Shown piece by piece: positions 5,501-46,155 of a stretch of DNA of 64,000 bases. Under the pieces are notes generated by a model. It did not search any database. It saw nothing but the letters and a program-made list of their open reading frames with translations, and was not told where the DNA came from. The DNA is taken from assembly GCA_036340075.1 (NCBI GenBank), contig JAYYZJ010000003.1, positions 31,261 through 95,260 of the forward strand, written 5' to 3'. This stretch comes from Thermodesulfobacteriota bacterium (lineage in GTDB: Bacteria; Desulfobacterota_D; UBA1144). The position numbers and the translations under genes were made by a program. Position 1 is the stretch's first letter. The number at the start of each line of letters is the position of its first letter.

Positions 5501-6451
5501 ATGACAGATTGTGCAATAATTGGTTCGGGAATCAGTGGTACATTCGCGGCTTTGTATTTTAAAAGGTTTGGCATAAGTAATATATCAATTTTTGATAAAT
5601 CACGAGGAGTAGGAGGAAGGCTAGCAACTAGAAGAATAGAAAATGGGAAGTTTGATCATGGTGCACAGTATCTCAATATAGAGGAAATAAGACATGTTCC
5701 TGAGATAGTTAGTCTAATAAAAAACAAAATTATTTTTAAATGGGGGGAAATGGATCGATATGTGGCAGAGGAAGGAATGACGAATATAAGCAAATTTTTA
5801 CTCTCTGATTTAGATGTAAAAAAGGAACATAAACTTCTACGTATTAACAACTTAGATGATAAAATTGAATTAGTCTTTGAAAACGGTGAAACTTTTTATT
5901 CGAAATCAATAATTTTTTCATGTCCAATACCCCAAACTATAGAAATCCTTGAAAATAGTAAAATTAAAGTAAAAGAATCCTCCTTTAATAAGCTAAAAAA
6001 GATTGAATACAATCCTTGCATCGTTATTTTAATAGAAGGAAAAACAAGGGCTGATAGTTTGGAAGAAGATTTTGGTCAAAATTTTTCTTCGGGGAATATA
6101 TCCTGGATTGCTGATAATAATAAGAAGAGAATATCGGAACGAAATAATTTTTTTACTGTTCAATGTTCTAGTGATTTTAGTCAATTAAATATTGATAAAA
6201 ATTATGATGAGATTGCTTCTTTAATAGATAAAGATTTAAGAAATATTTTTACAGATGAATATAAGATTTTATCAAACCATAAATGGCGATATTCTACACC
6301 AAAAACATTCTACAAAAATGAACTAAGTATCGATGTTGGGAAAAATATTTTTATTGGAATATGTGGTGATGCTTTCACAAATGGGAAATTTGATGGTGCA
6401 GTAAAATCTGGAATTAATATTGTTACTAAATATTTAGATAGATATCGTTAG
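5501..6451 (+). CDS. FAD/NAD(P)-binding oxidoreductase, renalase-like amine oxidoreductase family
   Basis: N-terminal Rossmann motif IIGSGISGTFAALYF, then DKSRGVGGRLATRR...DHGAQY, which resembles the renalase/flavin amine oxidase N-terminus. AAGGAGG SD sits 6 nt upstream. Its 3' end overlaps convergent umuC by 18 nt. Confidence 0.55.
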   Translation: MTDCAIIGSGISGTFAALYFKRFGISNISIFDKSRGVGGRLATRRIENGKFDHGAQYLNIEEIRHVPEIVSLIKNKIIFKWGEMDRYVAEEGMTNISKFLLSDLDVKKEHKLLRINNLDDKIELVFENGETFYSKSIIFSCPIPQTIEILENSKIKVKESSFNKLKKIEYNPCIVILIEGKTRADSLEEDFGQNFSSGNISWIADNNKKRISERNNFFTVQCSSDFSQLNIDKNYDEIASLIDKDLRNIFTDEYKILSNHKWRYSTPKTFYKNELSIDVGKNIFIGICGDAFTNGKFDGAVKSGINIVTKYLDRYR

Positions 6452-7702
6452 AAGCTCGTTCCAATTTGTAGTAAAATGTTTTGATTTTTTAGTCCTCTTA
6501 GTTATCCAAGCCTGGTTAACACCAGTAATGCTGTATTTAAGAGTATTTTTTCCGTAATGATTATTAATCTTATCAATGACTTTCATTAACCTCTCTTCTT
6601 TGTCTATCAATTCCAAATTATCATTAAATGTGAATTGTTTGAAATTTGAGTCTTGGATTTCAGCTAAAAACACATGTCCTTTTTTATATAAGAGACCTTT
6701 TTTAAAAATCTTCTTAAGTATGTTAATTCCATGATGAATCAATGTAGAAGTAGAGTTAGTCGATTGTTCTAGTAGAATTGTGTCATGCAAAAATATATAT
6801 CCTAAATTGCTATCAAATTTGTTAGTTGAAATAGCAACGGTAATCCTAGAGCATAGTGAATCTTGCTCTCTTAGTTTCTCTGCAGCCCGTGATATATATG
6901 TTGATATTGCTTCTTCAAGTAAATTAAAATCTAGAACTCCTGAAGCAAATGCCCTAGAAGTAATTATTTGTTTCTTGTTAGGTTCTGCATATTTTAATTC
7001 TATACATGGAAAACCGTTTAATTCCATTACTGTCTTGAGCACATTAATACTTGTTTTTTTTCGTATCCATTTATAATCAACCTCCTTTAATTCAAGAGCA
7101 TTGCTTATTCCGTTGCTCGTAAGAAATTCATTTAGTCTATTACCAATTCCCCAAATCTCTCCAACTTCTACGTCTTTCAAGATAGGTTCTATAAGCTTGT
7201 CGTCATTTACTAGAGTGCTAATTCCGGCTTCTTTCTTTGCTATTTTATTTGCAACTTTTGCTAAAGTCTTGGTCGTCGATATCCCTATAGATACTGGGAT
7301 TCCTGTCCATTTCAATATTCTCTCTCTAAGTTTATTGAATTCTTCAATAATAGATTTTTCATTCGAATGTGCAAAATAAACAAATGCTTCATCTATTGAG
7401 TAAATTTCGGTCTTAGGAAAAGAATCTCTTATTATGGTCATTACTCTGCTAGACATATCAGCGTAGAGAGTGTAGTTCGAGGAAAATACTTGTACATTAT
7501 TTTTTTCGATTATTGGCTTACATTTAAAAAATGGCTCGCCCATTCTGATTCCTAGTCTCTTAGCTTCGTTAGACCTTGCGATTATACATCCATCATTATT
7601 GGAAAGAATAATTAATGGCTTATTCCTTAGTGTTGGGTTAAAGACCTGTTCGCAAGAAGCATAAAAATTATTACAATCAATTAAAGCTACATATTGTTTC
7701 AT
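6434..7702 (-). CDS. umuC: Y-family DNA polymerase UmuC (Pol V catalytic subunit); ORF-track start 7741 is over-extended, true start MKQYVAL
   Basis: MKQYVALIDCNNFYASCEQVFNPTLRNKPLIILSNNDGCIIARSNEAKRLGIRMGEPFF...FSSNYTLYADMSSRVM..EIYSIDEAF aligns closely with the E. coli UmuC N-terminus. Confidence 0.85.
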   Translation of the reverse strand: MKQYVALIDCNNFYASCEQVFNPTLRNKPLIILSNNDGCIIARSNEAKRLGIRMGEPFFKCKPIIEKNNVQVFSSNYTLYADMSSRVMTIIRDSFPKTEIYSIDEAFVYFAHSNEKSIIEEFNKLRERILKWTGIPVSIGISTTKTLAKVANKIAKKEAGISTLVNDDKLIEPILKDVEVGEIWGIGNRLNEFLTSNGISNALELKEVDYKWIRKKTSINVLKTVMELNGFPCIELKYAEPNKKQIITSRAFASGVLDFNLLEEAISTYISRAAEKLREQDSLCSRITVAISTNKFDSNLGYIFLHDTILLEQSTNSTSTLIHHGINILKKIFKKGLLYKKGHVFLAEIQDSNFKQFTFNDNLELIDKEERLMKVIDKINNHYGKNTLKYSITGVNQAWITKRTKKSKHFTTNWNELLTISI

Positions 7703-7704
7703 GG

Positions 7705-8163
7705 CTAAGCTTGGTGGATGATGTAGGTAACAACACCCCATGTATCAAAATCCATTTCTTCTGTTATTTCAATCTTCTTGAAACTCTTATTCTCAGGATG
7801 AAGAAATATTCTTTGGTTTCTTATCGAAATTCTTTTTACAGTTAGCTCTCCATTAATTAGTGCTATTACTATGTTTCCATCTTTAACTTCTATAGCCCTA
7901 TCTACAATTAGAGTATCTCCTGATTCGATTCTTGCATTTACCATTGAGTCACCTTCAACCTTAACAAAGAATGTAGCCGCAGGATTCTTTATAAGTAGCT
8001 CATTAAGATCAAGATTTTTTTCTATATAGTCATCTCCTGGTGAAGGAAAACCAGCTTGTACCCTTGCAATAAAAAGTGGCAATTTTTTTGCGCCGTGTCT
8101 TTTTTCTATTGGTCTAATCTCAGATACTAGCAATCCTGATTTTCTGGCAGAAGACATAGACAT
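7705..8163 (-). CDS. umuD: UmuD, LexA-like S24 self-cleaving subunit of Pol V
   Basis: 152 aa. Putative cleavage site VQAGFPSP (Ala-Gly), Ser nucleophile in GDSM and Lys in LTVKRI. The stop lies 2 nt before the umuC start, so the two genes form an operon. Confidence 0.8.
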   Translation of the reverse strand: MSMSSARKSGLLVSEIRPIEKRHGAKKLPLFIARVQAGFPSPGDDYIEKNLDLNELLIKNPAATFFVKVEGDSMVNARIESGDTLIVDRAIEVKDGNIVIALINGELTVKRISIRNQRIFLHPENKSFKKIEITEEMDFDTWGVVTYIIHQA

Positions 8164-24979: not shown

Positions 24980-25327
24980 TTGAGTGAGTTGAGTGATCGC
25001 TTGTTTATACAAGAGGAAAGTCCGAGCTCTTAAGGGAAAAGGTGCTGGGTAACTCCCAGGTGTTGCGAAGCAACGGAAAGTGCCACAGAAAATAACCGCC
25101 ATTAATAAACATATGATATTAATGGTAAGGGTGAAAAGGTGGTGTAAGAGACCACCGCAAGTTTTGGCGACAAAACATGGCAAGGCAAACCCCACCTAGA
25201 GAAAGACCAAGTATAGAAGCTGGTTTCCCTTCCACATGCTTCTGGGTAGGTCGCTTGAGATAATGAGTAATTGTTATCCTAGATGAATGATCGCATAGAA
25301 CAGAACTCGGCTTACTAACTCACTCAT
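24980..25327 (+). ncRNA. rnpB: RNase P RNA, bacterial type A
   Basis: Conserved P4 strands AGGAAAGTCCGAGC (5') and ACAGAACTCGGCTTA (3'), ACAGAAAATAACCGCC, and GGTAAGGGTGAAAAGGTGGTGTAAGAGACCACC (P10-12 region). P1 pairs GAGTGAGTTGAGT with ACTAACTCACTC. About 345 nt. The overlapping minus-strand ORF 24962..25195 is spurious. Confidence 0.85.
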
Positions 25328-26521
25328 TTAAATAAATTTAGCTTTATAAAAATTTCTTTTTCCTATTTTAATTTTCCATCGGGTTTGTTTGTCTGGCAAA
25401 ACATCCAATGAAGTTAATTTTTCTTCATTTATTTCTATTGCTTTGTCTTTTATAAGTCTTTTTAATTCCGATCGTGAAAAGGTCTTTGTGGATATCTCTT
25501 CGAGAAGATCTAAAAGATTTTGGTCTAGCAATTGAATTTCTATCTCTAGAATATCGTCAGGAAAACTTTTTTCACTAAATTTACCTTCAAAATCTTTACG
25601 GGAAGAGTCTGCTAAAGATTTGCTGTAATATTCGGCAACAATTGTGGTTCCTAATGTTTTTTTTCTCTCTAATGGATTGGGGATCTTTTTAAATTCGTCT
25701 TCCTTGTCATGATACAATAGATGAATATACTTATCCATCAACTCGTCTGGTATTGACATAACCTTTCCAAACATTTCTTCTGGAGAATCATTTAAACTAA
25801 TATGGTTATCTAAAGTCTTTGACATTTTCATTTTTCCGTCAAGACCTTCTAAGATTGGTACAAATACTCCAACTTGCTCTGGAACATTATGTGACTTTTG
25901 AATCTGCCTACCAAGTAAAATATTAAACATTTGATCTGTGCCGCCCATCTCGATATCTGATTTCAACATTACCGAATCGTAAGCCTGAAGAAGGGGATAA
26001 AGAAATTCTGTTACTGTAATTCCATCTCCTGCATTATATCTCTTTTTAAAATCATCTCTTTCGAGAAGGCGCGCTACATTTTCTTGCGATGTAAGATTAA
26101 TTAATTCTGCTAAGTTGAACTTATCGAACCATTTAGAATTATAAAAAACTTTTACATTTTTCTTTTTTAGAATTTTATATAATTGGTCTTCATATGTTTG
26201 AGCGTTTTCCTTAATGATTTTTGTATCCAATGCTGGTCTGGTTTTGTCTCTACCTGTAGGATCCCCGATTTTCGCCGTATAATCTCCGATTAAGAATAAT
26301 ATACTATGTCCTAAATCTTGGAAGACTTTTAGCTTTCTTATTAACAAAGAATGTCCTAAATGTAAATTTGAAGTTGTTGGATCGAACCCTGCCTTAATCC
26401 TTAGAGGTGCTTTGTTTTCATAAGAGTCTTTTAGCTTCGAAAGCAATTCATTCTCAGGAATTATATCGCTAACATTTTCCTTGATAATATTTAATTGATC
26501 TTCGGGTTTTAAAAAATCCAT
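25328..26521 (-). CDS. tyrS: tyrosine--tRNA ligase
   Basis: HIGH motif TSNLHLGHS, KMSKS motif KMSKT, and a C-terminal S4-like domain. Confidence 0.95.
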   Translation of the reverse strand: MDFLKPEDQLNIIKENVSDIIPENELLSKLKDSYENKAPLRIKAGFDPTTSNLHLGHSLLIRKLKVFQDLGHSILFLIGDYTAKIGDPTGRDKTRPALDTKIIKENAQTYEDQLYKILKKKNVKVFYNSKWFDKFNLAELINLTSQENVARLLERDDFKKRYNAGDGITVTEFLYPLLQAYDSVMLKSDIEMGGTDQMFNILLGRQIQKSHNVPEQVGVFVPILEGLDGKMKMSKTLDNHISLNDSPEEMFGKVMSIPDELMDKYIHLLYHDKEDEFKKIPNPLERKKTLGTTIVAEYYSKSLADSSRKDFEGKFSEKSFPDDILEIEIQLLDQNLLDLLEEISTKTFSRSELKRLIKDKAIEINEEKLTSLDVLPDKQTRWKIKIGKRNFYKAKFI

Positions 26522-26554: not shown

Positions 26555-28192
26555 TCAAGCATCAATAAAACCGTTCGTTATTGGATATCTCCTATCTCGC
26601 CCAAAGGCTTTTGAAGTAATCTTTATACCCGGAGGAGATTGTCTTCTTTTGAATTCGCTATTATTAACTTTCTTGATTATTGAGGAAACAATTGATTTTT
26701 TAATATTGATAGATTTTGCAATATAGGATGCGCTTTTGCCTTCTTCAATATAAAGCTCCAATATTTGGTCCAATATCTTATATGGTGGCAACGTATCTAA
26801 ATCTTTTTGGTTGTCTCTTAACTCAGCAGATGGCTCTCTTTTGAGAATACCCAATGGAATCATTTTCTTTGGATGTATCTTGTTATGAAATTTTGCAAGC
26901 TTATATACCAAGGTTTTTGGTATATCTTTTAAAATTGCAATACCTCCTGCACTATCGCCATACAAAGTAGAATATCCAACACTAATTTCACTCTTATTTC
27001 CTGTAGCTAGTAACAGATGGCCCAATTTGTTTGACGTTGCCATAAGAATATTGGCTCGGATTCTTGATTGAAGATTTTCCTCTGTAACATCCCATTGCTT
27101 TTTTCCATAAGAGTTCACTAGTAATTTATTTGTAGCTTCAAATAAATCTTGAATTGGGGCAACAGATAAATCAAATTGTAGATTTTTTGCAAGCTCTATA
27201 GCTAAATGAAGACTTTTGAATGAATTATATATTGTGGGAAGTGCTAATCCTAATACATTTTTTTTCCCTAGAGTATTTACAGCTATTGCTGATACCAAGG
27301 CAGAATCTATTCCACCAGATACACCTAATACAACTTTGCTAAATCCATTCTTTTCTACGTAATCTTTCAATCCTAGGGACAATGCAGAGTAAATTTGCTC
27401 TGGTTCAGATTCTTCTTTTGTTTTTAAAGTTTTATTCAAAGATTTAGTTTCTTTAAATTTAAGACTTCTAATTAAAATATCTTCTTCAAATTCTTTGCCG
27501 TAGGCCTCTACATTCCCATTTCTATCAAGAATAATACTTTTACCATCAAAAACTAACTCATCCTGACCCCCGACAAGATTGCAGTAACATATCTTTATTC
27601 TATTCTTTGTAGATATTTTTTTAAGTATATTTAGTCTCTTTTTTTGCTTACCAATACTAAAAGGTGATGCTGATAAGTTCACAAGGAGATCGATATCGTT
27701 TCTGGAGATTCTTTCGTTTATTATTTTTAGATCAGTCCATATATCTTCACAAATAGAAATCCCAACAGTCTGATTTTTAATCTTGAAACTTACTCCTTCT
27801 ATACCTTTTTCAAAATAACGATTTTCATCAAAGACTCCATAGTTAGGAAGCTGAAACTTTTTATATTCTCCTTGAAGTTTTCCGTTAAGAAATATTCCTG
27901 CAACATTAAATAGCTTGTCATTAATTTTTTTAGGATAACCAATTATGCAAGTTATCCCTTTACTTAGCTTAGCTATTTTTTTAATAAATGCGTCCGTGGA
28001 TTTAATAAATTTATTATTTAATAACAAATCTTCTGGTGGATAACCGGTTATAGCTAGTTCGGGAAAACATAGTAGGTCAACCTTCTGTTTCTTGGCAATC
28101 TTTATAATTTTGGAAATTTTACTATAATTGTATTCCAAATCTCCTACTTTTGAGTTAATTTGTGCCAATGCTACTTTAATACTGTTTTCCAT
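26555..28192 (-). CDS. nadE: glutamine-dependent NAD+ synthetase
   Basis: 545 aa. N-terminal CN-hydrolase domain and C-terminal NAD synthetase domain with PP-loop GVSGGIDSALV. Confidence 0.9.
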   Translation of the reverse strand: MENSIKVALAQINSKVGDLEYNYSKISKIIKIAKKQKVDLLCFPELAITGYPPEDLLLNNKFIKSTDAFIKKIAKLSKGITCIIGYPKKINDKLFNVAGIFLNGKLQGEYKKFQLPNYGVFDENRYFEKGIEGVSFKIKNQTVGISICEDIWTDLKIINERISRNDIDLLVNLSASPFSIGKQKKRLNILKKISTKNRIKICYCNLVGGQDELVFDGKSIILDRNGNVEAYGKEFEEDILIRSLKFKETKSLNKTLKTKEESEPEQIYSALSLGLKDYVEKNGFSKVVLGVSGGIDSALVSAIAVNTLGKKNVLGLALPTIYNSFKSLHLAIELAKNLQFDLSVAPIQDLFEATNKLLVNSYGKKQWDVTEENLQSRIRANILMATSNKLGHLLLATGNKSEISVGYSTLYGDSAGGIAILKDIPKTLVYKLAKFHNKIHPKKMIPLGILKREPSAELRDNQKDLDTLPPYKILDQILELYIEEGKSASYIAKSINIKKSIVSSIIKKVNNSEFKRRQSPPGIKITSKAFGRDRRYPITNGFIDA

Positions 28193-28228
28193 ATTATAAA
28201 ACTATAAATAATATTCTATACTGTTTTA

Positions 28229-31090
28229 ATGAATTTGATAAAATATTCAATCAAAATAGCACTATCTTTTGTTCTTTTCGCAGCAATTTGCTTCAGTTCT
28301 ATTGCAAGCAACAAAGAAATAATTGATTCGACCATTTACCATGTCAAAAAGAAATCTCATTTTTATGATTCAAGCACATATGAAAAGATTTTTGTTGCTT
28401 CTATAGACGCTGTTAATACTTTTTCTGAAGATATATTCATTCAAATATTAGAATCTACTAAACACAATCTAAAAATAAAAATTAAAAATGCCAAGGTAGA
28501 GGAAGAATTAATTCTTTCAAAAAATAAAAATTTGGTCGATGTGGGTAGAAATTTAAATAAAATAATTAATTTCCTAGAAAAAGAAAATATCTTGAGTGAC
28601 AAAATGCTATCTTATCATGTTGCCAATGCTGTATTGCAAGAAATAGATGAATATTCATCAATTATAGAGCCGGAAGAACTTGAACAATTTATGGCAGAAA
28701 CAAAGGGTAGTTTTGGTGGTATTGGAATTGTAGTAACTTTGAGAGACGAGAAGCTAACTATTATTTCTCCAATCGATGGGACACCCGCATCTAAGGCTGG
28801 AATAAAAGCAAATGATATTATACGAAGAATAGAATCTATTGATACTGCGGGCATGAGCTTACAAAAAGCAGTCACATTGTTGCGTGGTGAAAAAGGAAGT
28901 TCAACGACTCTATATATTGAAAGAGAAAATGTTGAGGACTTGATACAATTTGATGTTGTAAGAGATACGATAAAAATAGACAGTGTCTCCTCAAAAATTT
29001 TAGAAGAAAAAGTTGGGTACATTAAGATAAAAGCATTCCAAGCAAATTCTTTTGAAGATTTCGAGAAAGCTCTTAATTCACTTAGAGATAAAGGAATTGA
29101 ATCGCTTATTTTAGATTTAAGGGGGAACCCTGGTGGTCTGTTTGATCAATCTTTAAAAATATCGAATATATTTTTGAAAAATAAATTGATTGTCTCCACT
29201 AGAGGAAAAAGAGCCAATATAAACAGAGACTTTTTTACAGCTAGAACCGAGGTTGAAAAATTTTTTGGTCCCGTAATAGTATTGGTCGACAGAGGTAGTG
29301 CTAGCGCCGCTGAAATAGTCGCTGGTGCCTTAAAAAATAACAAGAGATCTCTGGTTCTTGGTGAAAAAACATTTGGAAAGGGGACAGTTCAAGAAGTTTA
29401 TGAGCAAGAAGATGGTTCTGCAATTAAGCTTACAATCGCCGAATATCTCAATCCAGAAGAATATAAAGTGCATTTGAATGGAATTGTTCCGGACATACTC
29501 TTTGTACCTGTTGAATTTGAAGATGAAAAATTAATTTTTAATAATGATTCTTCATTTATTCAATTCAATAATGAAAATAAAGGATTAGATGGATTAAGTT
29601 CAGGCAAAACTAGTTTGCAAATTTTGTATAGTAAAAAGGAAGATAAGGAAAAAGATGATGAGCTGATTCAATTTTCTCAATTTCTGTTGAACTCCGAAAG
29701 TTTAAAGAAGGTAGCATTTAATGAAAATACTGAAAATTTTCTTTCTTTAATAGAAGAAGAATTAGAAGTAAGGGTAAGGGATTTAAATTCTTCACTCACA
29801 TCGAAAATAGAAAATTTCTACTTAGGAGATATTGAATCAGGCAAAGATGTCAGAATTAAGAATGAAAAAGTTGGTTTAGATATTCTCAAAACAATAAAAC
29901 TAGAGTCAGGAAAAAGTGAAGAAGTTGAAGCAACAATAGAGAACAATTCTGACAAACAAATTCGCAACTTAGTTATAAGTCTAAATTCTGAAAATAGATC
30001 ATTAAATAATAAATTCTTTTTTGTTGGTCTCCTCGGTGCAGGAGAAAAAAAATCAATTAGTATGAAGATCAATATCCCTAGTTGGGTAGAAAATAGCGAA
30101 GACTTGCTTAATTTTACTCTATCAAGTATCTCGTTAGATGATCCACTCCGTCCCAGATTTCTTGAAATACAAAGAACTAGCTCCAAGGCCTTTATAACCA
30201 AAAACCGGTTTGATTACCCGCAATTTTCTTTCTTTGTATTGCCAAAAGACATTTCTGAAGAGAAAATCGAACTGGATCTAATAATAGAATTGAAAAGGAT
30301 TACTCAAGAAAGAGAATTCTCTCAGGATTGTAGCAAGTGCCAAGTAAAAGTTCTTTCAAAAGATAATGACTTAATTATTAAAGCTAAATATCATAAAATT
30401 CCCGATATCCATAAAAAGGATGCGCTAATTAAAACAACTCTTTCCATTGATACTGATAATATTGAAGATGATATTGAATTTATAATTAGATTCCATGACG
30501 AGGAATCGCATTCCTTCTTTGACAAAATAGTCTCATTACCACTTAGAGAGATGTCTAGTTATAAGAAATATAAAAATGTTTTAGATTATAGGATACAAGA
30601 CAAAAATCTCTTTTTTTCTGATCCTGGAGAAGATGCAATTATTACTGGAAGAATACATAGGGGTGGGTTAATTCAAGCTTCAGGAGAAACAGAGAATTTT
30701 GTACTGATCAATAATAACGATAGTCCCGCATTTTGGATTAAGAAATTAGATGTAGTTCAAACAAATAATGAAGAAAAGAGTAAGTTTATAGATGCAAAAA
30801 TTATTAGTGAATATGAATCACCTCCTACTATGGAAATTAAAACTCAAATATTAGAAGATAAAAATAAAGCAAAAATTGTATCCTTAATTAAGGATGATAC
30901 AAATCTAAGAAGTGTGAACTACTTTATCAACGGGAAGAAGATTAGACTTGTTGCGGAAGGCAAGAGAAACATTAATGAAACATTTGGTATTCAGCTGGAG
31001 CCTGGAAGAAATAAGCTCTCAGTTATGGCGATTGATAAGAAAAATATAAAAGTTTTCGAAGATTTCTTTATAACAAGTTATGAGAAATAA
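28229..31090 (+). CDS. S41 C-terminal processing peptidase with about 520-aa C-terminal extension of unknown function
   Basis: The first roughly 430 aa carry GGIGIVV, a PDZ domain (GTPASKAGIKANDII), LDLRGNPGGL, the Ser in VDRGSASAAEIVAGAL and the Lys in GEKTFGKGTVQ. Residues from about 430 to 953 have no recognisable motif. Confidence 0.8.
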   Translation: MNLIKYSIKIALSFVLFAAICFSSIASNKEIIDSTIYHVKKKSHFYDSSTYEKIFVASIDAVNTFSEDIFIQILESTKHNLKIKIKNAKVEEELILSKNKNLVDVGRNLNKIINFLEKENILSDKMLSYHVANAVLQEIDEYSSIIEPEELEQFMAETKGSFGGIGIVVTLRDEKLTIISPIDGTPASKAGIKANDIIRRIESIDTAGMSLQKAVTLLRGEKGSSTTLYIERENVEDLIQFDVVRDTIKIDSVSSKILEEKVGYIKIKAFQANSFEDFEKALNSLRDKGIESLILDLRGNPGGLFDQSLKISNIFLKNKLIVSTRGKRANINRDFFTARTEVEKFFGPVIVLVDRGSASAAEIVAGALKNNKRSLVLGEKTFGKGTVQEVYEQEDGSAIKLTIAEYLNPEEYKVHLNGIVPDILFVPVEFEDEKLIFNNDSSFIQFNNENKGLDGLSSGKTSLQILYSKKEDKEKDDELIQFSQFLLNSESLKKVAFNENTENFLSLIEEELEVRVRDLNSSLTSKIENFYLGDIESGKDVRIKNEKVGLDILKTIKLESGKSEEVEATIENNSDKQIRNLVISLNSENRSLNNKFFFVGLLGAGEKKSISMKINIPSWVENSEDLLNFTLSSISLDDPLRPRFLEIQRTSSKAFITKNRFDYPQFSFFVLPKDISEEKIELDLIIELKRITQEREFSQDCSKCQVKVLSKDNDLIIKAKYHKIPDIHKKDALIKTTLSIDTDNIEDDIEFIIRFHDEESHSFFDKIVSLPLREMSSYKKYKNVLDYRIQDKNLFFSDPGEDAIITGRIHRGGLIQASGETENFVLINNNDSPAFWIKKLDVVQTNNEEKSKFIDAKIISEYESPPTMEIKTQILEDKNKAKIVSLIKDDTNLRSVNYFINGKKIRLVAEGKRNINETFGIQLEPGRNKLSVMAIDKKNIKVFEDFFITSYEK

Positions 31091-31997
31091 TTATTTCCTA
31101 ACCAAACTAATAAGTTCTTTCCTGGTATTACTTATAGTAACATCTTCGACTTTTGTATTATTAAGAACATTGCCTGGTGGACCTTTTGATAGTGAAAAGA
31201 AACTGCCTCCTGCAATTAAAGAGAACATAGAAAAGAAATATCAATTAGATCAACCTATTCAGACTCAATATTTGTCTTATATGAAAAATATTTTGCGCTT
31301 CGATTTAGGTCCATCTTATTTCTATACAGGAAAAACTGTAAATGAAATTATTAGCAAGAGCTTTCCTTTTTCATTAAAAATTGGCTCGATGTCTTTAATC
31401 TTTACTGTAATTGCATCACTTGGACTGGCAGTTTTTTTGTTCAGAAGAGAAAACCAACTTAGTTCAAAAATAATCAATCTACTTCTCTATGCCTCGGTTG
31501 GTGTTCCTATGTTCCTTTTAGGAGCGGTATTAATAATTTTCTTTTCGGTTCAATTGTCATTATTTCCTGCTGCATTACTTGAAAAACCTACGAGTTATAT
31601 TCTTCCTGTTCTTACATTATCAATCCCTTCTATAGCTTTTCTTACAAAACTTATGGTTGAGACAATGAATGAAACTAATAGTTCTATGTTCGTAAGAAAT
31701 GCAACGATTAACAACATAGACCCTGGAATTATTCTAAATAAATATATTGTTAAGAATTCTCTTATACCTTTTATTACAGCAATTGGTCCAATTGCTGCAT
31801 TTATGATTACAGGCTCATTTGTTGTTGAGAGCATCTATTCAATTCCGGGTATGGGTAGAATGTTTGTCTTATCAATTATCAACAGAGACTATCCACTAAT
31901 CTGTGGTTTAACATTAATCTATACTATGATTTTGATATCAATAAACATGCTTATAGACTTTATCTATCCTTTTCTTGATAAAAGGATAAAGATTTAA
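31080..31997 (+). CDS. ABC transporter permease, OppB/DppB family (no partner subunits nearby)
   Basis: N-terminal LLRTLPGGPFD, which resembles the OppB LLRLLPGDP box; six TM segments; binding-protein-dependent permease core. Overlaps the protease gene by 11 nt. Confidence 0.7.
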   Translation: MRNNYFLTKLISSFLVLLIVTSSTFVLLRTLPGGPFDSEKKLPPAIKENIEKKYQLDQPIQTQYLSYMKNILRFDLGPSYFYTGKTVNEIISKSFPFSLKIGSMSLIFTVIASLGLAVFLFRRENQLSSKIINLLLYASVGVPMFLLGAVLIIFFSVQLSLFPAALLEKPTSYILPVLTLSIPSIAFLTKLMVETMNETNSSMFVRNATINNIDPGIILNKYIVKNSLIPFITAIGPIAAFMITGSFVVESIYSIPGMGRMFVLSIINRDYPLICGLTLIYTMILISINMLIDFIYPFLDKRIKI

Positions 31998-31998
31998 A

Positions 31999-32736
31999 AT
32001 GAATATAAGGATAGATATTGAATATATTGGTACTAATTTTTTTGGTTGGCAAAAACAAAAAAGGCTCAGGACCATACAAGGTGAAATAGAGAAGTCCGTA
32101 AAAAAGATTTTTGGGGAAAAGATTATTGTGTATGGATCAGGAAGAACTGACAGTGGTGTTCATGCTATTAATCAAGTTGCTAATTTTCATGTAAAAGATG
32201 AAAAAAAAATAAATATGATTGGTTTAAAGAATAAGCTGAACTCTATTTTGGATAGTGATATAAAAATTAAATCTTGCAATAAAGTTGATGAGAATTTTCA
32301 TGCACAATATGATTGCAAGGAAAAAGTTTACCTATATAGAATCAAGATAAATGAACCTTGTTCGGTTTTCGAAAAGGGAAGAATGTGGTATTTAAAAAAA
32401 AGTATAAATACAAAGAAATTGGAAAAGATTTCTTCTGTTTTTGTTGGTGAAATAGATTTTATAAATTTTTGTAAAACCGGATACTCTGGAGAAAACACTG
32501 TAAGAAACTTAAGAAAAATATCAATCAAAGAAAAAAAGAATTATATAGATTTCTTCATTACCGGAAATGGTTTTTTAAGAGGAATGGTAAGATTAATAAT
32601 TGGCTGTTTAATTAATTTTGAAAAAGGGGTGATTCAAAAGAAAGATGTAGTTCTTGCTTTGAAAAATAAAAAAAGATTAAAATTAAATTATAGTGTTCCA
32701 GCAGAAGGTCTCTATCTATATAAGGTAAAATACTAG
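31999..32736 (+). CDS. truA: tRNA pseudouridine(38-40) synthase
   Basis: Catalytic Asp motif GSGRTDSGVHA. 245 aa. Confidence 0.9.
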   Translation: MNIRIDIEYIGTNFFGWQKQKRLRTIQGEIEKSVKKIFGEKIIVYGSGRTDSGVHAINQVANFHVKDEKKINMIGLKNKLNSILDSDIKIKSCNKVDENFHAQYDCKEKVYLYRIKINEPCSVFEKGRMWYLKKSINTKKLEKISSVFVGEIDFINFCKTGYSGENTVRNLRKISIKEKKNYIDFFITGNGFLRGMVRLIIGCLINFEKGVIQKKDVVLALKNKKRLKLNYSVPAEGLYLYKVKY

Positions 32737-32737
32737 T

Positions 32738-33382
32738 ATGATATATAAAGGTTTTTCAGAGATTGGATATCCTACCAAGATTATTGCAATAGGTTTAAAT
32801 TATCATGATCACGCAGAGGAAATGAAAAAAAAGCCTCCTGCCGAACCTTTAATGTTTTTAAAGCCTCCATCGTCTCTTATTGCTTGGAATGAGGATATTA
32901 TATATCCGAACCATATGAGCTCTAGAGTAGACTATGAGGGGGAACTTGGAATAGTTATTAAAAAAGAAGCTAAGTGGGTGAGCGTAAATGAAGCTCAAAA
33001 TTACATTTTAGGCGGATTGTGTGTAAATGACGTTACTGCACGAGATTTACAGTCTTTGGATATTCAATTTTCTCGGGCAAAAGGTTTTGATACATTTTGT
33101 CCTGTCGGTCCTTCTGTATCAGATGAAATTGATTATCAAAATGTTAAAATCAAAACTATCGTTAATGGGGAGACAAAACAAGAATCAAGTACTTCGAATA
33201 TGGTTCATAGTGTAAATTTTTTAATTAGTTTTATAAGTAAAATTATGACTTTAAATAGAGGGGATTTAATTCTAACAGGAACACCTGGTGGTATAGGTCA
33301 ATTAAAAGATAAAGATATTGTAAGTGTAAATATTGAGGGCCTCGAAGGAACTAGAAATAAAGTTTCATTGAGGATTAAATAA
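32738..33382 (+). CDS. fumarylacetoacetate hydrolase (FAH) family protein
   Basis: IIAIGLNYHDHAEEM, FLKPPSSLI, DYEGELGIVI, GFDTFCPVGP are FAH-fold metal-binding signatures. Confidence 0.8.
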   Translation: MIYKGFSEIGYPTKIIAIGLNYHDHAEEMKKKPPAEPLMFLKPPSSLIAWNEDIIYPNHMSSRVDYEGELGIVIKKEAKWVSVNEAQNYILGGLCVNDVTARDLQSLDIQFSRAKGFDTFCPVGPSVSDEIDYQNVKIKTIVNGETKQESSTSNMVHSVNFLISFISKIMTLNRGDLILTGTPGGIGQLKDKDIVSVNIEGLEGTRNKVSLRIK

Positions 33383-33398
33383 TATATTAGGAGAAATT

Positions 33399-34484
33399 AT
33401 GTCAAAAATCTTAATTTTGCCAGGCGATGGAATTGGTATAGAGGTTACAGATGAATGTATAAAAATTTTGAATTACTTCAAAGATACATTCGAAATAGAA
33501 TTCGAAAAAGAGATTTTTGGAGGTGCATCAATTGATAAAAATGGACAGCCACTTACTCAAGAAGTTCTTGATAAAGCTTTGACTTCAGATGCTGTACTGC
33601 TAGGAGCAGTAGGGGGCGAGAAGTGGGAGAGCATTGACCATAATTTAAAACCTGAAAAAGGCTTGTTGATGTTGAGAAAAGAACTGGAAACTTTTGCGAA
33701 TTTGCGACCTGGCAAAGTTTTTTCTTCATTATTAAGTGCTTCTTCCTTAAAAGAGGAAATAGTTAACCATACTGATATTCTCGTGATAAGAGAATTAACT
33801 GGTGGGATATATTTTGGTGAGCCACGATTTCTTAAAGATATTAATAATAAAAGAGTTGGTGCTAATACTTTAATATACGATGAGGAAGAAATTGTAAGAG
33901 TCGCGAGAGTAGCTTTTAATTACGCCAGAAAAAGAAAAAACAAAGTCACATCGCTAGATAAGGCAAATGTCTTAGAAGTTATGCAACTCTGGAGAGATGT
34001 AGTTAATGAAGTTCATAAAGCTGAATTTAGTGATGTTGAGCTAGAACATCTTTACATTGATAATGCCGCCATGCAGGTTATTAAAAGACCATCTACCTTC
34101 GATGTTATACTAGCTGGCAATCTTTTTGGAGATATAATTAGTGACGAGATTGCTGAGCTCACTGGATCTTTGGGTATGCTGCCGTCTGCATCAATAGGAG
34201 AGAGCTCTGCAATCTATGAGCCAGTACATGGAAGTGCACCGGATATTGCGGGAAAGAATATAGCCAATCCGATAGCGGCAATTTTATCTCTTTCTATGTT
34301 GTTTAAATACTCCCTTAATTTAGACAAAGTATCTGAATTGATTGATACCGCTGTTTCGAATACTTTAGATTCTGGCATTAGGACTAGGGATATAAACAAC
34401 AATCAATCTGAGCCTGTGAATTGTTCTGAAATGGGTGATAAGATTCTTGCAAACATAGATGAAATCAAGTCAAAATTTATCTAA
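33399..34484 (+). CDS. leuB: 3-isopropylmalate dehydrogenase
   Basis: NLFGDIISDE motif and the general isocitrate/isopropylmalate dehydrogenase fold. 361 aa. Confidence 0.9.
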   Translation: MSKILILPGDGIGIEVTDECIKILNYFKDTFEIEFEKEIFGGASIDKNGQPLTQEVLDKALTSDAVLLGAVGGEKWESIDHNLKPEKGLLMLRKELETFANLRPGKVFSSLLSASSLKEEIVNHTDILVIRELTGGIYFGEPRFLKDINNKRVGANTLIYDEEEIVRVARVAFNYARKRKNKVTSLDKANVLEVMQLWRDVVNEVHKAEFSDVELEHLYIDNAAMQVIKRPSTFDVILAGNLFGDIISDEIAELTGSLGMLPSASIGESSAIYEPVHGSAPDIAGKNIANPIAAILSLSMLFKYSLNLDKVSELIDTAVSNTLDSGIRTRDINNNQSEPVNCSEMGDKILANIDEIKSKFI

Positions 34485-37400
34485 AAATTCTACTGCTTTT
34501 GAGAAAGGAATGATTAAGTCCTTAAATATTGATTTAAACAAAGATACTTCATACGCTATATATGGCTCTAATGATTTTATAAACTCAGCCATCATTGCTG
34601 ATTTATATGAAAAAGAACTCGAGGATATTTTTTTTGTTACGGATAACCCAAAAAGATGCCAAATGTTAATTGAGCATCTAGAACAAAGTTTCAATATTCC
34701 TAGCTTCTATTTAGAAAATGAAATTTTTCATTCTGAAGCTGATTCTAATAACGGTAGAAAATTTTCTTTGAATCTATTTTCATTTCTAGAGCAACATCAA
34801 TACAGAAGAATAAAATTTATTGATACTAAAAATCTGCTTCACAAATTTAAAAGAAGAAGACGGATGGAATGCAAAAAAATTCAAAGAGATGCCTCTTCTT
34901 TTAATAGAGATGGATTAATTAGTCAACTTATTGAATTTGATTACAGAGAAAAAGAATTTATAGAAGAACTTGGAGATTATGCTGTTAGAGGATCGATAAT
35001 TGATTTTTTTTCACCATCAGAACCCTTCCCAATAAGGGTTGAATTTAAAAATGATAATCCATCGTCTTTTCAAATCTTTGATCTTGAAAATGAACGAAGG
35101 ACCGGTGAAATTCTTGATGAAATTACAATAATGAATATTAAATCAGAAGCTGATCCAATGGTAGCTTCTGACATGACACTTTTAGAATTAATTGATTCAA
35201 AATCTATTCTTATTTTTGATTCAGAATCTGATTTCACCTTGTTTGGAAGTAGTAGAAAAAAAATATTTGATTTATTAGGTAAAAAGAAAACACTCTTTCT
35301 AAATCCAACACATCCCATTGATTCTGCAACCAATCTTAATCTGGATTTAGAGCTAATCAGAGAGCCTTATGACCTTTCGTTAGAATTTATAAAGGAAATT
35401 ATCAACGAAAGGGCCGACTTAAAAAAAGTTTATCTAGTAACAGATGCTGCTACCAAGAGGAATCTTATTGGTGATTTAGAGAAAAAAATCTTAGGAAAGA
35501 TAATCTTTGTTGATGGATTTTTGAGAAAATCTTTTTATCTGAAGAACAACAAGAATCTTTATTTATCTTTCAATAAAACGGTCTCCAATAAAGACTCTAA
35601 TACGTATGCTAATCAATCATTTAAATTGTCTAATTTTATGGATTTAGAACTAGGAGACTATGTTGTTCACAGAGACTTTGGTTTAAGTCTCTACAAAGGA
35701 ATAAAAAATAAAACAATAAACGGTTCTGTTGTTGATTTTATTGAATGTCAATTTGATCTAAATGACAAACTTCTTATACCAATTGACAAGATTAGCTTGA
35801 TTCAAAAATATATAGGCGGGAATAAGAGTATTAGACTGGATTCATTAAGAAGCAGAAGCTGGATAGGCAAAGTAAAGAAAGCTAAAAGAGTAGCAGAAAA
35901 TGTAGCAAGAGAAATATTGAGTCTTTATGCTCAAAGGAAATCAGCAGATGGCTTTTCTTATCAAATTAATGAAAAAGAAATCGCTGAATTTGAAGATAGG
36001 TTTGAATATCAAGAAACTAGGGATCAAAAAAATGCAATAATTAGCACATATCAAGACATGCAATCGTCTAAGCCTATGGATAGACTTATTTGCGGTGATG
36101 TAGGCTTTGGGAAAACAGAGGTAGCACTGAGGGCATCTTTCCTTGCCTCAATTAACTCAAAACAGACTGTTATTATAGCTCCAACAACTCCTCTTGTTCA
36201 TCAACATTTAAATACCTTCTTAAAACGATTTAAGGATTTGCCTATAAAGGTGGAGGCTCTCTCTAGATTTGTAAAACCAAAAAAAGTCTTAATGATTCAA
36301 AAAGAATTAGCCGAAGGCAAAATTGATATAGTAGTTGGTACTAACAAAATCTTATCAGATAAAATCAAATTTAAGAATTTAGGATTGATAATAATAGACG
36401 AAGAACATAAATTTGGTGTATCAGCAAAAGAAAAGATTAAAAAGATTAAGGTTGGTATAGACTCTTTGAGTCTTTCTGCCACACCGATACCTCGTACTCT
36501 TCAACTTTCTCTTTCTGGATTAAGAGACATAAGCCTCATTGGGACCCCTCCAAAAGAAAGATTAGGGGTTGAAACTTATATAGATAAATATAATGAAGAA
36601 AAAATCAAAAAAGCAATTGAATATGAAAGAGAAAGGGGCGGAAAAGTGTTCTTTATTCACAATGAAATAAAAACTATAGAAAAAATTTTCCAGGTTCTAA
36701 AAAAATTGCTACCTAATGAAAAAATAGATTATGTACATGGAAGGATGAAAAGTACTGACATCGAAAATCGCTTAAAACAATTTATTGATGGTGACATATC
36801 AATACTAATTACTACTACGATTGTGGAATCTGGTCTTGATATCAAAACAGTTAACACAATGATAATCAATAATGCTCATAATTTCGGATTATCTGATCTT
36901 TACCAGCTTCGTGGGAGAATTGGGCGAGGCTCAGTTAAAGGGATAGCATATCTTATCATTCCGGATAAAGAGATAACTGACAATGCGAAAAAAAGATTGG
37001 CCGCAATGAAAAGACTGACAAAACTTGGCTCTGGTTTTAATTTAGCTCTAGAAGATTTAGAAATAAGAGGAGCAGGAAATTTATTTGGTATAGAGCAATC
37101 AGGAAAAATATATGATGTTGGAATAGAATTTTATCTTGACTTGTTAGAGAAAGAAATTAATCAAATCAGGAACAATACCGCTGAAATCTCATTCAACCCA
37201 GAAGTTGAAGTTAACGAGAGTCTTTTTATTCCTAAAAGTTACATATCGTCAGCAGAGAGAAGGTTGTTTTATTATAAAAGAATTTCCTTAATAGAAAGCG
37301 AAGATGATTCCGTTAGTTTGGTTGATGAATTGTTAGATAAATTTGGTCCCATTCCTTATGAGCTCTTAAATTTAATACATATAGCTGATATAAAAATCCA

Positions 37401-43557: not shown

Positions 43558-44110
43558 TTGATTTTTTTACCGCCTTTGTCTTTTTTGGGAGAACAATCAT
43601 AGTTAAATTTTTTCCTTCAAATTTTGGATCATTGTCTAGTTCTCCAAACTCAGCTGAGTGCTCAATTATCTTATCAACTAATTGCTGACCTAAATTTTTA
43701 TGAACAATTTCTCTACCTTTGAACCATAGCCTAACTTTGACTTTGTGCCCATCAGTAAGGAACTCTTTGAGTCTGTTAATTTTAACATTAAAATCATTTT
43801 CTCCAATATTTGGTCTAAACTTAATCTCTTTAAGCGCCTGAGTTTTAGTTTTTCTAAGAGATGTTTGCTTCTTCTGATCGTATCTGAACTTTCCATAGTC
43901 CATAATTTTACAAACAGGGGGTTCGGCATCTGGGGATATCTCAACTAAATCTGTGGAATTCTGTTGTGCCATTGCAAGAGCATCGCCGATAGAAAGAATA
44001 CCAACCTGAGAACCATCTAGGCCTATTACTCTAACCTCGGAAGCCCTGATGGATTTGTTAATTCTATTTCCGCTTGGCTTTCTTCTAGAACCAAATACTT
44101 TGTTTCTTAT
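43529..44110 (-). CDS. infC: translation initiation factor IF-3, proposed non-canonical ATA start overlapping the thrS stop
   Basis: The ORF track begins at MAQQN, but the in-frame upstream translation (I)RNKVFGSRRKPSGNRINKSIRASEVRVIGLDGSQVGILSIGDALAMAQQNSTDLVEISPDAEPPVCKIMDYGKF aligns with the IF-3 N-domain (E. coli [23 protein letters not shown]...[21 protein letters not shown]). There is no ATG/GTG/TTG in this frame between the upstream TAG and MAQQN. An ATA lies at 44108-44110. Confidence 0.8.
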   Translation of the reverse strand: MRNKVFGSRRKPSGNRINKSIRASEVRVIGLDGSQVGILSIGDALAMAQQNSTDLVEISPDAEPPVCKIMDYGKFRYDQKKQTSLRKTKTQALKEIKFRPNIGENDFNVKINRLKEFLTDGHKVKVRLWFKGREIVHKNLGQQLVDKIIEHSAEFGELDNDPKFEGKNLTMIVLPKKTKAVKKSNGKSKDEVQ

Positions 44111-46014
44111 AAGCTATCCTCCTGTTGGATCTCTCCATTAATTATTGAGAGAAAATCATCTAATTTTATTTCCCCGATTTGCTCTCCTCCGTATTTCCTT
44201 ACACTAACCGTCTTATTCTCCATCTCTGACTTTCCTATAGTCAGAATATATGGAACCTTTGCAATTTCAGCCTCTCTAATTTTAAGACCTAGTTTTTCAT
44301 TTCTTTGATCAACCTCTGCCCTAAATTTAAGCCTTCGAAAATTTTCCATTAAATTATTCGAATAATCAAATTGCTCTTCAGACACGGTTAGTATCTTTAT
44401 TTGAACTGGGGCTAACCAAAAAGGAAAAGCTCCTCCGTAATGCTCAACTAAGATACCAAAAAATCTTTCAAAGGAGCCAAATATAGCTCTATGAATCATT
44501 ACCGGCTGAAGTCTATCATTATCCCGTGAAATATAATTAAGGTCAAATCTCTTTGGTAAATTAAAATCAACTTGTACGGTTGAGCACTGCCACGATCTCC
44601 CTAAAACATCTTTAATTTTTAAATCAATCTTTGGTCCATAAAAAGCTCCTCCGCCTTCATCTATGCTGAATTCCAATGACTTATTTCTTAGAGCTGCCTT
44701 TAAAGCATTTGTTGCATCGTTCCAGTCTTCTTCAGAGCCAACAAATTTTCCTGGTCTGGTAGAAACAAATATTTCATACTCTTTGAATCCGAACGCCTCG
44801 AGAAATTTAATTGTTAAATCAATTACATCATTAACTTCTGATTCGATTTGATCTAACATGCAAAAAATATGTGCATCATCTTGAGTAAAACCTCGTGCTC
44901 TAAATAGTCCATGTAAAACTCCTGACCTTTCATATCTATAGACCGTTCCTATCTCTGCAAATTTTACAGGTAAATCTCTATAGCTTCTTAACTCACTTTT
45001 ATAAATCATTATATGAAAAGGACAGTTCATTGGTTTTGTTTGATATCTATTTTTATCGATTTCCATTTCGGAGAACATGTTTTCCTTGTAGAATTCTGAG
45101 TGTCCACTTGTCTCCCAAATATCAGCTTTTGCCAAGTGCGGCGTGTAAACGATTTGGTAATCAGCTTTTATATGTTGCTCTCTCCAATAATCTTCTATTA
45201 TATTTCTTACAGTTGCTCCGTTGGGATGCCACATTACAAGTCCTGGGCCTATCTCGTCTGTTATTGAGAATAAATTTAATTCCTTTCCTAGTTTTCTATG
45301 ATCTCTCTTTTTGGCCTCTTCGATTAGTAGTAGATGTTTTTTTAAATCTTTTTTGGTTAAGAAAGCTGTTCCATAAATTCTTTGTAGTGATTCTCTCGTT
45401 TCGTCTCCTCGCCAATAGGCACCCGCGACACTTAACAACTTAAATGCCTTCACATAAGAAGTCCTAGGTGCATGGGGACCTCTGCATAAATCAAACCACT
45501 CACCCTGGAAATAGAGTGAAATTTCTTCGGCTTTATCTAAATCATTAATTATTTCTTCTTTAAAACTTTCACCCATTTTTTTAAATTTATTAAGCGCATC
45601 TTCTCTGGACAAAATCTCTTTCGTCATTGGCTTTTCCTGCTTAATTATTTCCAACATCTTCTTTTCGAAAAGTTCAAGATCTTCCTCAGTAAAGGTTCTC
45701 TCAGTATAAAAATCATAGTAGAATCCATTCTCGATAACTGGGCCTATGGTAACCTTGGTATCTGGATAAACAGATTGAACTGCCTCAGCTAAAATATGTG
45801 CAGCAGTATGACGTATTAAATCCAAAGCAGCTTTAGAGTCCTCTCGAACAACTTCAATTTTTACATCTTTTCTTGGTTGATGCTTCATGTCACGCAATTC
45901 TCCATCAACCAGAGCTCCGATCACTGAATTGTCATACTCTAGCTTGCATAAAATCTCTCCGACGTTCAAAGTATCTTCAAATTCGGAAATGTTGCCTTTA
46001 ATATCTATCTTCAT
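44107..46014 (-). CDS. thrS: threonine--tRNA ligase (start at MKIDIKG; the ORF-track N-terminal extension runs into tRNA-Val)
   Basis: TGS and editing N-domain, HxxxH SAHHTA-like motif (HTAAHIL), class II core FRARGFTQDDAHIF, and a C-terminal anticodon-binding domain. Confidence 0.95.
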   Translation of the reverse strand: MKIDIKGNISEFEDTLNVGEILCKLEYDNSVIGALVDGELRDMKHQPRKDVKIEVVREDSKAALDLIRHTAAHILAEAVQSVYPDTKVTIGPVIENGFYYDFYTERTFTEEDLELFEKKMLEIIKQEKPMTKEILSREDALNKFKKMGESFKEEIINDLDKAEEISLYFQGEWFDLCRGPHAPRTSYVKAFKLLSVAGAYWRGDETRESLQRIYGTAFLTKKDLKKHLLLIEEAKKRDHRKLGKELNLFSITDEIGPGLVMWHPNGATVRNIIEDYWREQHIKADYQIVYTPHLAKADIWETSGHSEFYKENMFSEMEIDKNRYQTKPMNCPFHIMIYKSELRSYRDLPVKFAEIGTVYRYERSGVLHGLFRARGFTQDDAHIFCMLDQIESEVNDVIDLTIKFLEAFGFKEYEIFVSTRPGKFVGSEEDWNDATNALKAALRNKSLEFSIDEGGGAFYGPKIDLKIKDVLGRSWQCSTVQVDFNLPKRFDLNYISRDNDRLQPVMIHRAIFGSFERFFGILVEHYGGAFPFWLAPVQIKILTVSEEQFDYSNNLMENFRRLKFRAEVDQRNEKLGLKIREAEIAKVPYILTIGKSEMENKTVSVRKYGGEQIGEIKLDDFLSIINGEIQQEDSL

Positions 46015-46023
46015 ATATGTACA

Positions 46024-46095
46024 TGAGCACGAGTGGATTTGAACCACCGACCTCTTGCGTGTCAAGCAAGCGCTCTCCCCCTGAGCTACGCGCTC
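46024..46095 (-). tRNA. tRNA-Val (anticodon GAC)
   Basis: Reverse complement GAGCGCGTAGCTCAGGGGGAGAGCGCTTGCTTGACACGCAAGAGGTCGGTGGTTCAAATCCACTCGTGCTCA. Anticodon stem CTTGC/GCAAG with loop TTGACAC, and TTCAAAT T-loop. Confidence 0.85.
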
Positions 46096-46155
46096 AATTA
46101 GCTTAACGAAAATATTGTAAATACATGAAAATATAAATCAAATGCTGTAATATAT

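Follow-up and report, generated by a model that had tools for sequence, protein, structure and literature searches.

A divergent long C-terminal processing protease beside a solitary OppB-type permease in a conserved gene string of Dadabacteria

The C-terminal processing proteases (Ctp) of solved structure closest to the protein studied here are CtpA from Pseudomonas aeruginosa and Helicobacter pylori and CtpB from Bacillus subtilis, short S41 enzymes of about 400-450 amino acids (aa). P. aeruginosa CtpA relies on a separate TPR (tetratricopeptide repeat) lipoprotein, LbcA (Protein Data Bank (PDB) 8sxe-8sxh), and Escherichia coli Prc/Tsp with NlpI is likewise a PDZ-containing S41 protease, located in the periplasm, in which extra non-catalytic domains shape substrate access (PDB 5wql, 6iqq, 8xud). 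The known adaptors of the short Ctp and Prc enzymes are TPR lipoproteins, and it is through adaptors that these enzymes control peptidoglycan hydrolases (PDB 8sxe, 8xud). Long relatives are represented by the NCBIfam model TIGR03900 ('prc_long_Delta', MXAN_5808 family serine peptidase), a hypothetical equivalog with a 973-position profile and a curated cutoff of 660.95 bits. Here we analyze two adjacent genes, one for a long S41 protease and one for an OppB/DppB-type ATP-binding cassette (ABC) importer subunit, in a window of 64 kb (64,000 nucleotides (nt) of contig JAYYZJ010000003.1 from a Thermodesulfobacteriota bacterium, assembly GCA_036340075.1; all positions are those of this window unless a locus is named). 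Taken together, the data are probably best explained by a divergent long Ctp and an ordinary OppB subunit, dispersed from its partners, that lie side by side in a string of housekeeping genes.

The protease gene (28229..31090, plus strand, ATG start; open reading frame (ORF) list and homology) encodes 953 aa and its frame ends in AGT TAT GAG AAA TAA, and the permease gene (31080..31997, plus strand, ATG start; Pfam, NCBIfam and hydropathy) encodes 305 aa from an ATG at 31080, in such a way that the end of the protease gene, with its stop codon, and the beginning of the permease gene share 11 nt (31080..31090, plus strand; ATGAGAAATAA). A first-pass annotation of this DNA had already reported the 953-aa ORF sharing 11 nt with the permease ORF, and the ORF coordinates agree. 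In a Kyte-Doolittle scan the only hydrophobic segment of the protease was aa 3-28, within an N-terminal stretch without a lipobox (aa 1-28, 28229..28312, plus strand; MNLIKYSIKIALSFVLFAAICFSSIASN) that is a predicted export signal or membrane anchor. Since this sole segment is N-terminal and no lipobox is present, the protease is likely exported or membrane-anchored, and its sequence suggests signal cleavage after SIA.

The PDZ domain (aa 163-237, 28715..28939, plus strand; Pfam PDZ_2, PDZ_6 and PDZ) is followed by the S41 catalytic domain (aa 261-423, 29009..29497, plus strand; Pfam Peptidase_S41, E 7e-53). The score of PF03572 on the protease was 178.9 bits against a threshold of 24, that of TIGR00225 'prc' was 317.1 bits against a cutoff of 218.6, and both the VDRGSASAAE and the GKGTVQ motifs were found, all of which bears out the earlier description of the first ~430 aa as a complete Ctp/Prc-type S41 peptidase with a PDZ domain. 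The catalytic residues S359 (nt 29303-29305), K384 (nt 29378-29380) and Q388 (nt 29390-29392; all plus strand), together with S357, are unchanged across the 36 homologues aligned, and the spacing of S359, K384 and Q388 (25 and 4 residues) is that of S300, K325 and Q329 in H. pylori CtpA (PDB 9ku3). The full-length AlphaFold model, built like the others from homologue alignments, reached a mean predicted local distance difference test score (pLDDT) of 83.1 and a predicted template modelling (TM) score of 0.77, and a Foldseek search against the PDB placed the PDZ and S41 core at TM 0.74-0.79 to CtpA structures. Identity to CtpA and CtpB is around 36% over this core, whereas E. coli Prc shares only ~20% identity and a TM of ~0.3-0.45, and its extra domains are helical while those of the window protease are Ig/SH3-like. 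Homology thus shows a CtpA/CtpB-type S41 enzyme, probably exported, with an intact catalytic centre, for which activity is predicted.

The short CtpA and CtpB enzymes do not have the 520-aa module that makes up the rest of the protease. No significant Pfam match was obtained for aa 432-953. Used alone as a query, the C-terminal half drew no matches in a word-indexed search of proteins, and in an exhaustive phmmer search it drew just 24 representatives, for the most part marine relatives and fragments, plus a few proteins of ~980 aa that matched weakly but collinearly. By contrast, TIGR03900 ranked first for the whole protease, with 435.2 bits; aa 30-439 match its profile positions 7-418 and, taken alone, aa 472-942 match positions 480-964 of 973, collinearly and with an E value of 1.3e-18. 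A search with the full protein returned many relatives of 920-1000 aa covering 85-100% of the query, several of which NCBI records list as 'MXAN_5808 family serine peptidase', and the C-terminal half aligns end to end with these homologues. The first-pass annotation had seen no recognisable motif in this half, which holds for Pfam and not for NCBIfam, and had called it an unknown extension, setting beforehand a known Ctp-fused domain as the refuting outcome; the domain search found exactly such a module, the C-terminal part of TIGR03900, so the protein is no Ctp with an unknown extension.

The C-terminal half modelled alone by AlphaFold reached a pLDDT of 80.6. The model begins with a low-confidence linker and helical bundle (aa 432-525, 29522..29803, plus strand), with pLDDT below 50 at aa 447-459 and helices at aa 478-524. 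Next come a first beta-sandwich resembling CARDB/NPCBM_assoc (aa 548-657, 29870..30199, plus strand), a second one that matches the CARDB domain of the orthologues (aa 666-776, 30224..30556, plus strand), a small SH3-like beta-barrel (aa 779-844, 30563..30760, plus strand) and a third sandwich of the Big_7 or Ig-like type (aa 867-950, 30827..31078, plus strand; pLDDT ~90). The window protease is itself too diverged for Pfam to detect CARDB, SH3 or Big_7 domains, and the assignments draw on the models and on Pfam hits in orthologues: over the stretch aligned with sandwich 2, P0046, P0060 and P0085 score above the CARDB gathering threshold; over the barrel, P0112 is above that of SH3_4 and P0085 exactly equals that of SH3_3; and over sandwich 3, P0085 is above that of Big_7. 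In the Foldseek search of the PDB, matches were confined to the N-terminal core, no solved structure spanning the C-terminal module. The earlier guess of a beta-rich region, Ig-like or CARDB-like, agrees with these sandwiches and with the orthologue domains. Modelling and orthologue Pfam hits thus show aa 432-953 as a predicted rigid module that starts with a helical linker, goes on with a pair of CARDB-like Ig sandwiches and an SH3-like barrel and ends in one more Ig sandwich, and the four-domain Ig/SH3 module is homologous to that of the MXAN_5808 family.

In length class and order of parts (N-terminal region, PDZ, S41 and a C-terminal module of ~500 aa with CARDB-like and SH3-like domains) the window protease is like TIGR03900. 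The differences lie in the C-terminal half, which in marine proteins has diverged to 15-21% identity with non-marine members; due to this divergence the marine relatives score 416-436 bits, below the cutoff, whereas the range is 831-870 for the non-marine Dadabacteria orthologues and 967-991 bits for other members. In NCBI records the non-marine Dadabacteria proteins at the equivalent genomic position carry the MXAN_5808 family name. The sequence comparisons therefore place the window protease as a divergent marine branch of the MXAN_5808/TIGR03900 lineage, outside the set called by the model, and in that sense it is a new divergent member of a named, functionally uncharacterised family.

The genomic context of the pair was surveyed in one genome per species with the permease alignment as the query, which gave 80 loci, 74 of them of Dadabacteria type. 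In the records of these 74 the label is Candidatus Dadabacteria, Thermodesulfobacteriota, Deltaproteobacteria or no more than 'bacterium', and in a few cases another one such as Spirochaetia; among them are UBA1144, TMED58 and the Tara Oceans NAT, SAT and SP metagenome-assembled genomes (MAGs). ORF calling covered all 80 loci, and the window genes and E. coli OppABCDF served as references for the comparison. The window, with a GC content of 31%, groups with the marine pelagic Dadabacteria clade, which has been described as genome-streamlined (PMC8115339).

The long protease lies directly upstream of the permease, always co-directional, in 71 of the 71 Dadabacteria loci with upstream sequence, and this adjacency persists as identity drops to ~27% for the protease and ~43% for the permease. 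The downstream genes are kept in a similar way: truA follows the permease directly in 73/74 loci, the FAH-family gene is found in the string in 65/74, and most loci run on to leuB, sometimes after inserted genes, and to mfd. Contig look-ups of related loci agree with this survey, and the ctp-oppB-truA-FAH string is also present at loci whose protease passes the TIGR03900 cutoff (L077, bacterium HR37, P0046; L033, P0108). Protease and permease are thus co-directional members of a phylum-wide string formed by ctp, oppB, truA, the FAH-family gene, leuB and mfd; as truA follows in 73/74 loci, the string consists mostly of unrelated genes. In the window it continues on the plus strand with truA (31999-32736), the FAH-family hydrolase (32738-33382) and leuB (33399-34484), all identified by translation and in an order kept in related loci, and after leuB with mfd (34459-37617), tightly packed on the same strand. 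Upstream, nadE (26555-28192, minus strand) diverges from the protease gene across a spacer of 36 nt (28193..28228).

Some neighbours differ between clades. Non-marine Dadabacteria carry large TPR-repeat proteins on the opposite strand just past the FAH-family gene (L007 11496-15012; L010 11348-13123) and a small Gly-zipper gene of the YMGG/Rick_17kDa type just upstream of the long protease (L007 5288-5746; L010 5285-5722); both are absent from the marine window, and no LbcA-like adaptor is encoded beside its protease gene.

The first-pass annotation had read the 11-nt overlap as translational coupling. However, 10 of the 22 pairs of same-strand neighbour ORFs in the window overlap, by 1-55 nt, and gaps of 0-4 nt separate most of the rest; the overlapping or tightly packed pairs include unrelated genes such as leuB/mfd, purC with a membrane protein gene, and purA/hisZ/serA. 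Overlaps being the norm, the one studied here was rejected as a sign of specific coupling and that claim retains little weight: the overlap reflects genome streamlining and is no evidence for a dedicated two-gene system. Among related loci, 14 marine ones share the 11-nt overlap and 2 more overlap by 14 nt, while non-marine spacings are mostly gaps, from 0 to 123 nt, with two overlaps of 4-8 nt. Overlap sites elsewhere in the window include 34459-34484, 47055, 50259, 51473-51476 and 53905-53908. Because of these overlaps, the 0-4 nt gaps and the 36-nt spacer between nadE and ctp, promoters must sit within coding sequence. The best plus-strand promoter-like match for the protease gene, a candidate only, is at 28101-28128, within nadE, and promoter and terminator scans of the locus gave matches at chance level and were not used as evidence.

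The permease, of the peptide importer class TC 3.A.1.5, matches PF00528 BPD_transp_1 (84.8 bits) and PF19300 BPD_transp_1_N (32.4 bits). Its best NCBIfam matches are OppB-type, at 210-221 bits and all under the equivalog cutoffs (Opp3B 220.8 against 480; PRK09471 OppB 210.3 against 388), and a hydropathy scan shows it to have six hydrophobic segments that line up in order with the segments of E. coli OppB. Family and topology are shared with the E. coli protein, with 32% identity for the window permease and 41-47% for the non-marine orthologues, but E. coli OppB belongs to OppABCDF while the window permease has no adjacent oppA, oppC, oppD or oppF. The ORF is intact at all loci, and the ratio of non-synonymous to synonymous substitution rates (dN/dS) within the marine clade is 0.02-0.12, similar to that of leuB and below that of truA, for which reasons the permease appears functional and a decaying gene was rejected. 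These comparisons show its family, a bona fide OppB-type transmembrane subunit under strong purifying selection.

The segment in which the marine permeases stand apart is the EAA loop, which couples the subunit to its ATPase (aa 204-230, 31689..31769, plus strand; alignment with E. coli OppB). An alignment of the 80 loci plus E. coli, with 17 marine copies including the window (loci L011-L026), 58 non-marine and 6 outgroup copies, showed that the canonical RTARAKGL has become RNA(R/K)(I/L)N(N/K)I in the marine copies, altered in 17/17, with Asn or Lys in place of the conserved Gly. In the window the loop reads RNATINNI and the Gly position is Asn212 (nt 31713-31715). The AKGL core with its Gly is kept in 58/58 non-marine Dadabacteria, 6/6 outgroup copies and E. 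coli. The marine permeases do retain other conserved glycines (GPIxAFMITGSF, IPGMG), and AT bias is thus not enough to account for the change. Either the altered loop has co-evolved with its ATPase or it marks a changed mode of action.

Several of these results weigh against an ordinary, dispersed OppB next to a long Ctp, and they have to be set beside it. No gene for OppC, OppD, OppF or OppA was found in the 64-kb window, where all ORFs of at least 150 aa were read, nor were opp genes found in the 8 kb past its right end (L094), an extension that carries gidA, a DsbH-like gene, a UDG gene and leuS; homologues of OppA, OppC, OppD or OppF within 8 kb were found in 0/74 Dadabacteria loci. An oppB apart from oppC is unusual, and the existence of the partners elsewhere is assumed. 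Marine permeases no longer carry the conserved Gly of the ATPase-docking loop, nor four of its other conserved residues. Adjacency in 71 of 71 loci at ~27% protease identity is also expected of a functional pair. As for the protease, strict membership in TIGR03900 fails, since 435.2 bits is below 660.95, and a literature search on the family names found no relevant paper and no biochemical function for any member.

The absence of nearby partners was also seen by tblastn, where E. coli OppA, OppB, OppC, OppD and OppF against the whole window matched only the permease and, weakly, UvrA. The claim of the first-pass annotation that no OppC, ATPase or substrate-binding partner is encoded in the window is thus confirmed by ORF reading and tblastn alike, and its description of the permease as an orphan stands for the neighbourhood (64 kb, and 0/74 loci within 8 kb), which is where its scope ends; it does not extend to the genome. 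In the accessible part of the supplements to PMC8115339, at least one oppC-annotated gene is given for a non-marine Dadabacteria MAG (GCA-008933205.1_1109), and that part lists no peptide transporters for the marine clades. A literature search on Dadabacteria and peptide transport gave nothing useful. The six non-Dadabacteria permeases of the survey, from Bdellovibrionales, Binatia and a Rifle deltaproteobacterium (L050, L062, L076, L083, L089 and L090), sit in oppA-oppB-oppC clusters with no S41 gene; in five of these loci no ABC ATPase gene is present in the 7-8 kb downstream flank, and L076 is a 4.4-kb contig ending inside oppC. Clusters of oppABC without a nearby ATPase gene indicate that split or dispersed opp genes occur in related lineages. 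The dispersed arrangement within this very well known permease family is therefore unusual though not unprecedented.

A functional module, in which peptides that the protease cuts from envelope proteins or from substrates linked to the cell wall are imported by an Opp-type transporter containing this subunit, for recycling or signalling and under selection for co-expression, seems to us unlikely, although it is the likeliest of the alternatives. In its favour, the co-directional adjacency in 71/71 loci survives down to ~27% protease identity, whether the two genes overlap or lie up to 123 nt apart, which is unusual for unrelated genes, and the predicted SH3-like domain of the protease also speaks for it. 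Bacterial SH3 domains typically bind peptidoglycan. In addition, E. coli OppBCDF imports murein tripeptide according to PMC3173086 and to oppB and oppC product names, and Dadabacteria have been proposed to use peptidoglycan-derived material (PMC8115339), both of which fit such a module; by analogy, a link of protease and permease to the cell wall is conceivable. However, truA (73/74), the FAH-family gene (65/74), leuB and mfd are similarly kept with no plausible tie to either gene, and the protease is linked to a single one of the transporter's four or five components. The association is moreover lost outside Dadabacteria, where the nearest permeases lie in the oppABC clusters without an S41 gene and the TIGR03900 members (P0095, P0083) are followed by AhpC/Redoxin, LonC-like protease and Usp-like genes and by no permease. 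This AhpC/Redoxin-LonC-Usp set is a different recurrent neighbourhood for TIGR03900 (L009 9009-13097; L092 3528-7478). The dedicated protease-permease pair for processing and uptake or for signalling put forward in the first-pass annotation is consequently unsupported, truA and the FAH-family gene being equally conserved and the link being lost outside the phylum.

We consider it improbable that the marine, possibly phylum-wide, OppB-like protein has been repurposed as an orphan without ATPase docking, to act as a homodimeric or stand-alone membrane protein, such as a partner, anchor, sensor or passive peptide conduit for the protease. Such a role would agree with the loss of the Gly in 17/17 marine copies while other glycines are kept, with the strong purifying selection (dN/dS 0.02-0.12) and with the lack of partner genes in the 64 kb plus 8 kb examined here and near any orthologue. 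Nevertheless, the 58 non-marine orthologues keep AKGL and are 41-47% identical to E. coli OppB, which points to a normal transporter as the ancestral state, and the altered motif is itself conserved, as co-evolution with a partner ATPase predicts. We know of no OppB-type permease that acts without an ATPase, which also counts against it. The related and bolder proposal that the protease and the solitary OppB form an envelope unit, in which the marine OppB would work without a canonical ATPase and possibly without OppC as a homodimeric conduit, sensor or partner, is a long shot in our judgement; if true, it would mean that the membrane subunit of an ABC importer has been put to a new use. Finally, a new, undescribed domain or enzyme fused to the Ctp is effectively excluded for the C-terminal 520 aa, as the silence of Pfam, the empty word-indexed search and the 24 phmmer representatives are outweighed by the collinear TIGR03900 match, the end-to-end homologues of 920-1000 aa, the common Ig-like and SH3-like folds of the models and the orthologue Pfam domains.

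With a divergent long Ctp, a dispersed OppB subunit and a housekeeping gene string as the preferred explanation, the protease would trim or degrade envelope proteins from their C-termini, with its PDZ domain acting as the gate. The Ig/SH3 module would be a built-in targeting or adaptor unit that binds the cell wall, partners or substrates, and would replace the separate TPR adaptors, such as LbcA and NlpI, of the short Ctp and Prc enzymes. The partners with which the permease would work, namely OppC, ATPases and a binding protein, would be encoded at other sites in the genome, and co-transcription of the permease with the protease would be a legacy of gene order and streamlining.

Other features of the window were recorded along the way. 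A full-length class A RNase P RNA (299.6 bits; 24981-25330, plus strand) lies between the RNase H gene and tyrS, and its 3' end overlaps the tyrS stop region (tyrS 25328..26521, minus strand) by 3 nt. The ThrS ORF as listed (44107..46065, minus strand) has a TTG start and shares 43 nt with tRNA-Val (46023-46096, minus strand); the listed protein begins with what resembles a translated tRNA, and the real start is probably an internal ATG (MKIDIKG...). An ORF for a UmuD/LexA-like S24 peptidase (7705..8163, minus strand) overlaps that of a Y-family DNA polymerase (6434..7741) by 37 nt, in an arrangement that looks umuDC-like. A conserved 449-aa ORF (56940-58289, minus strand) has an identical gene in L094 (13625-14974) for which Pfam gave no match.

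Current understanding is unchanged by the results as they stand. What they add is that a single oppB gene, with no other opp gene near it, lies beside a long protease gene in every Dadabacteria genome examined. This conserved ctp-oppB adjacency and the rewriting of the EAA loop in a strongly constrained marine permease are new observations, each of modest interest unless the partners are missing. For annotation, the gain is that the marine Dadabacteria protein can be described as a divergent MXAN_5808-type long Ctp with a defined C-terminal architecture. Should the Opp partners be absent from the genome, an ABC permease would here be used in an unusual way; should they be present, the locus would neatly illustrate operon dispersal and co-evolution under genome streamlining.

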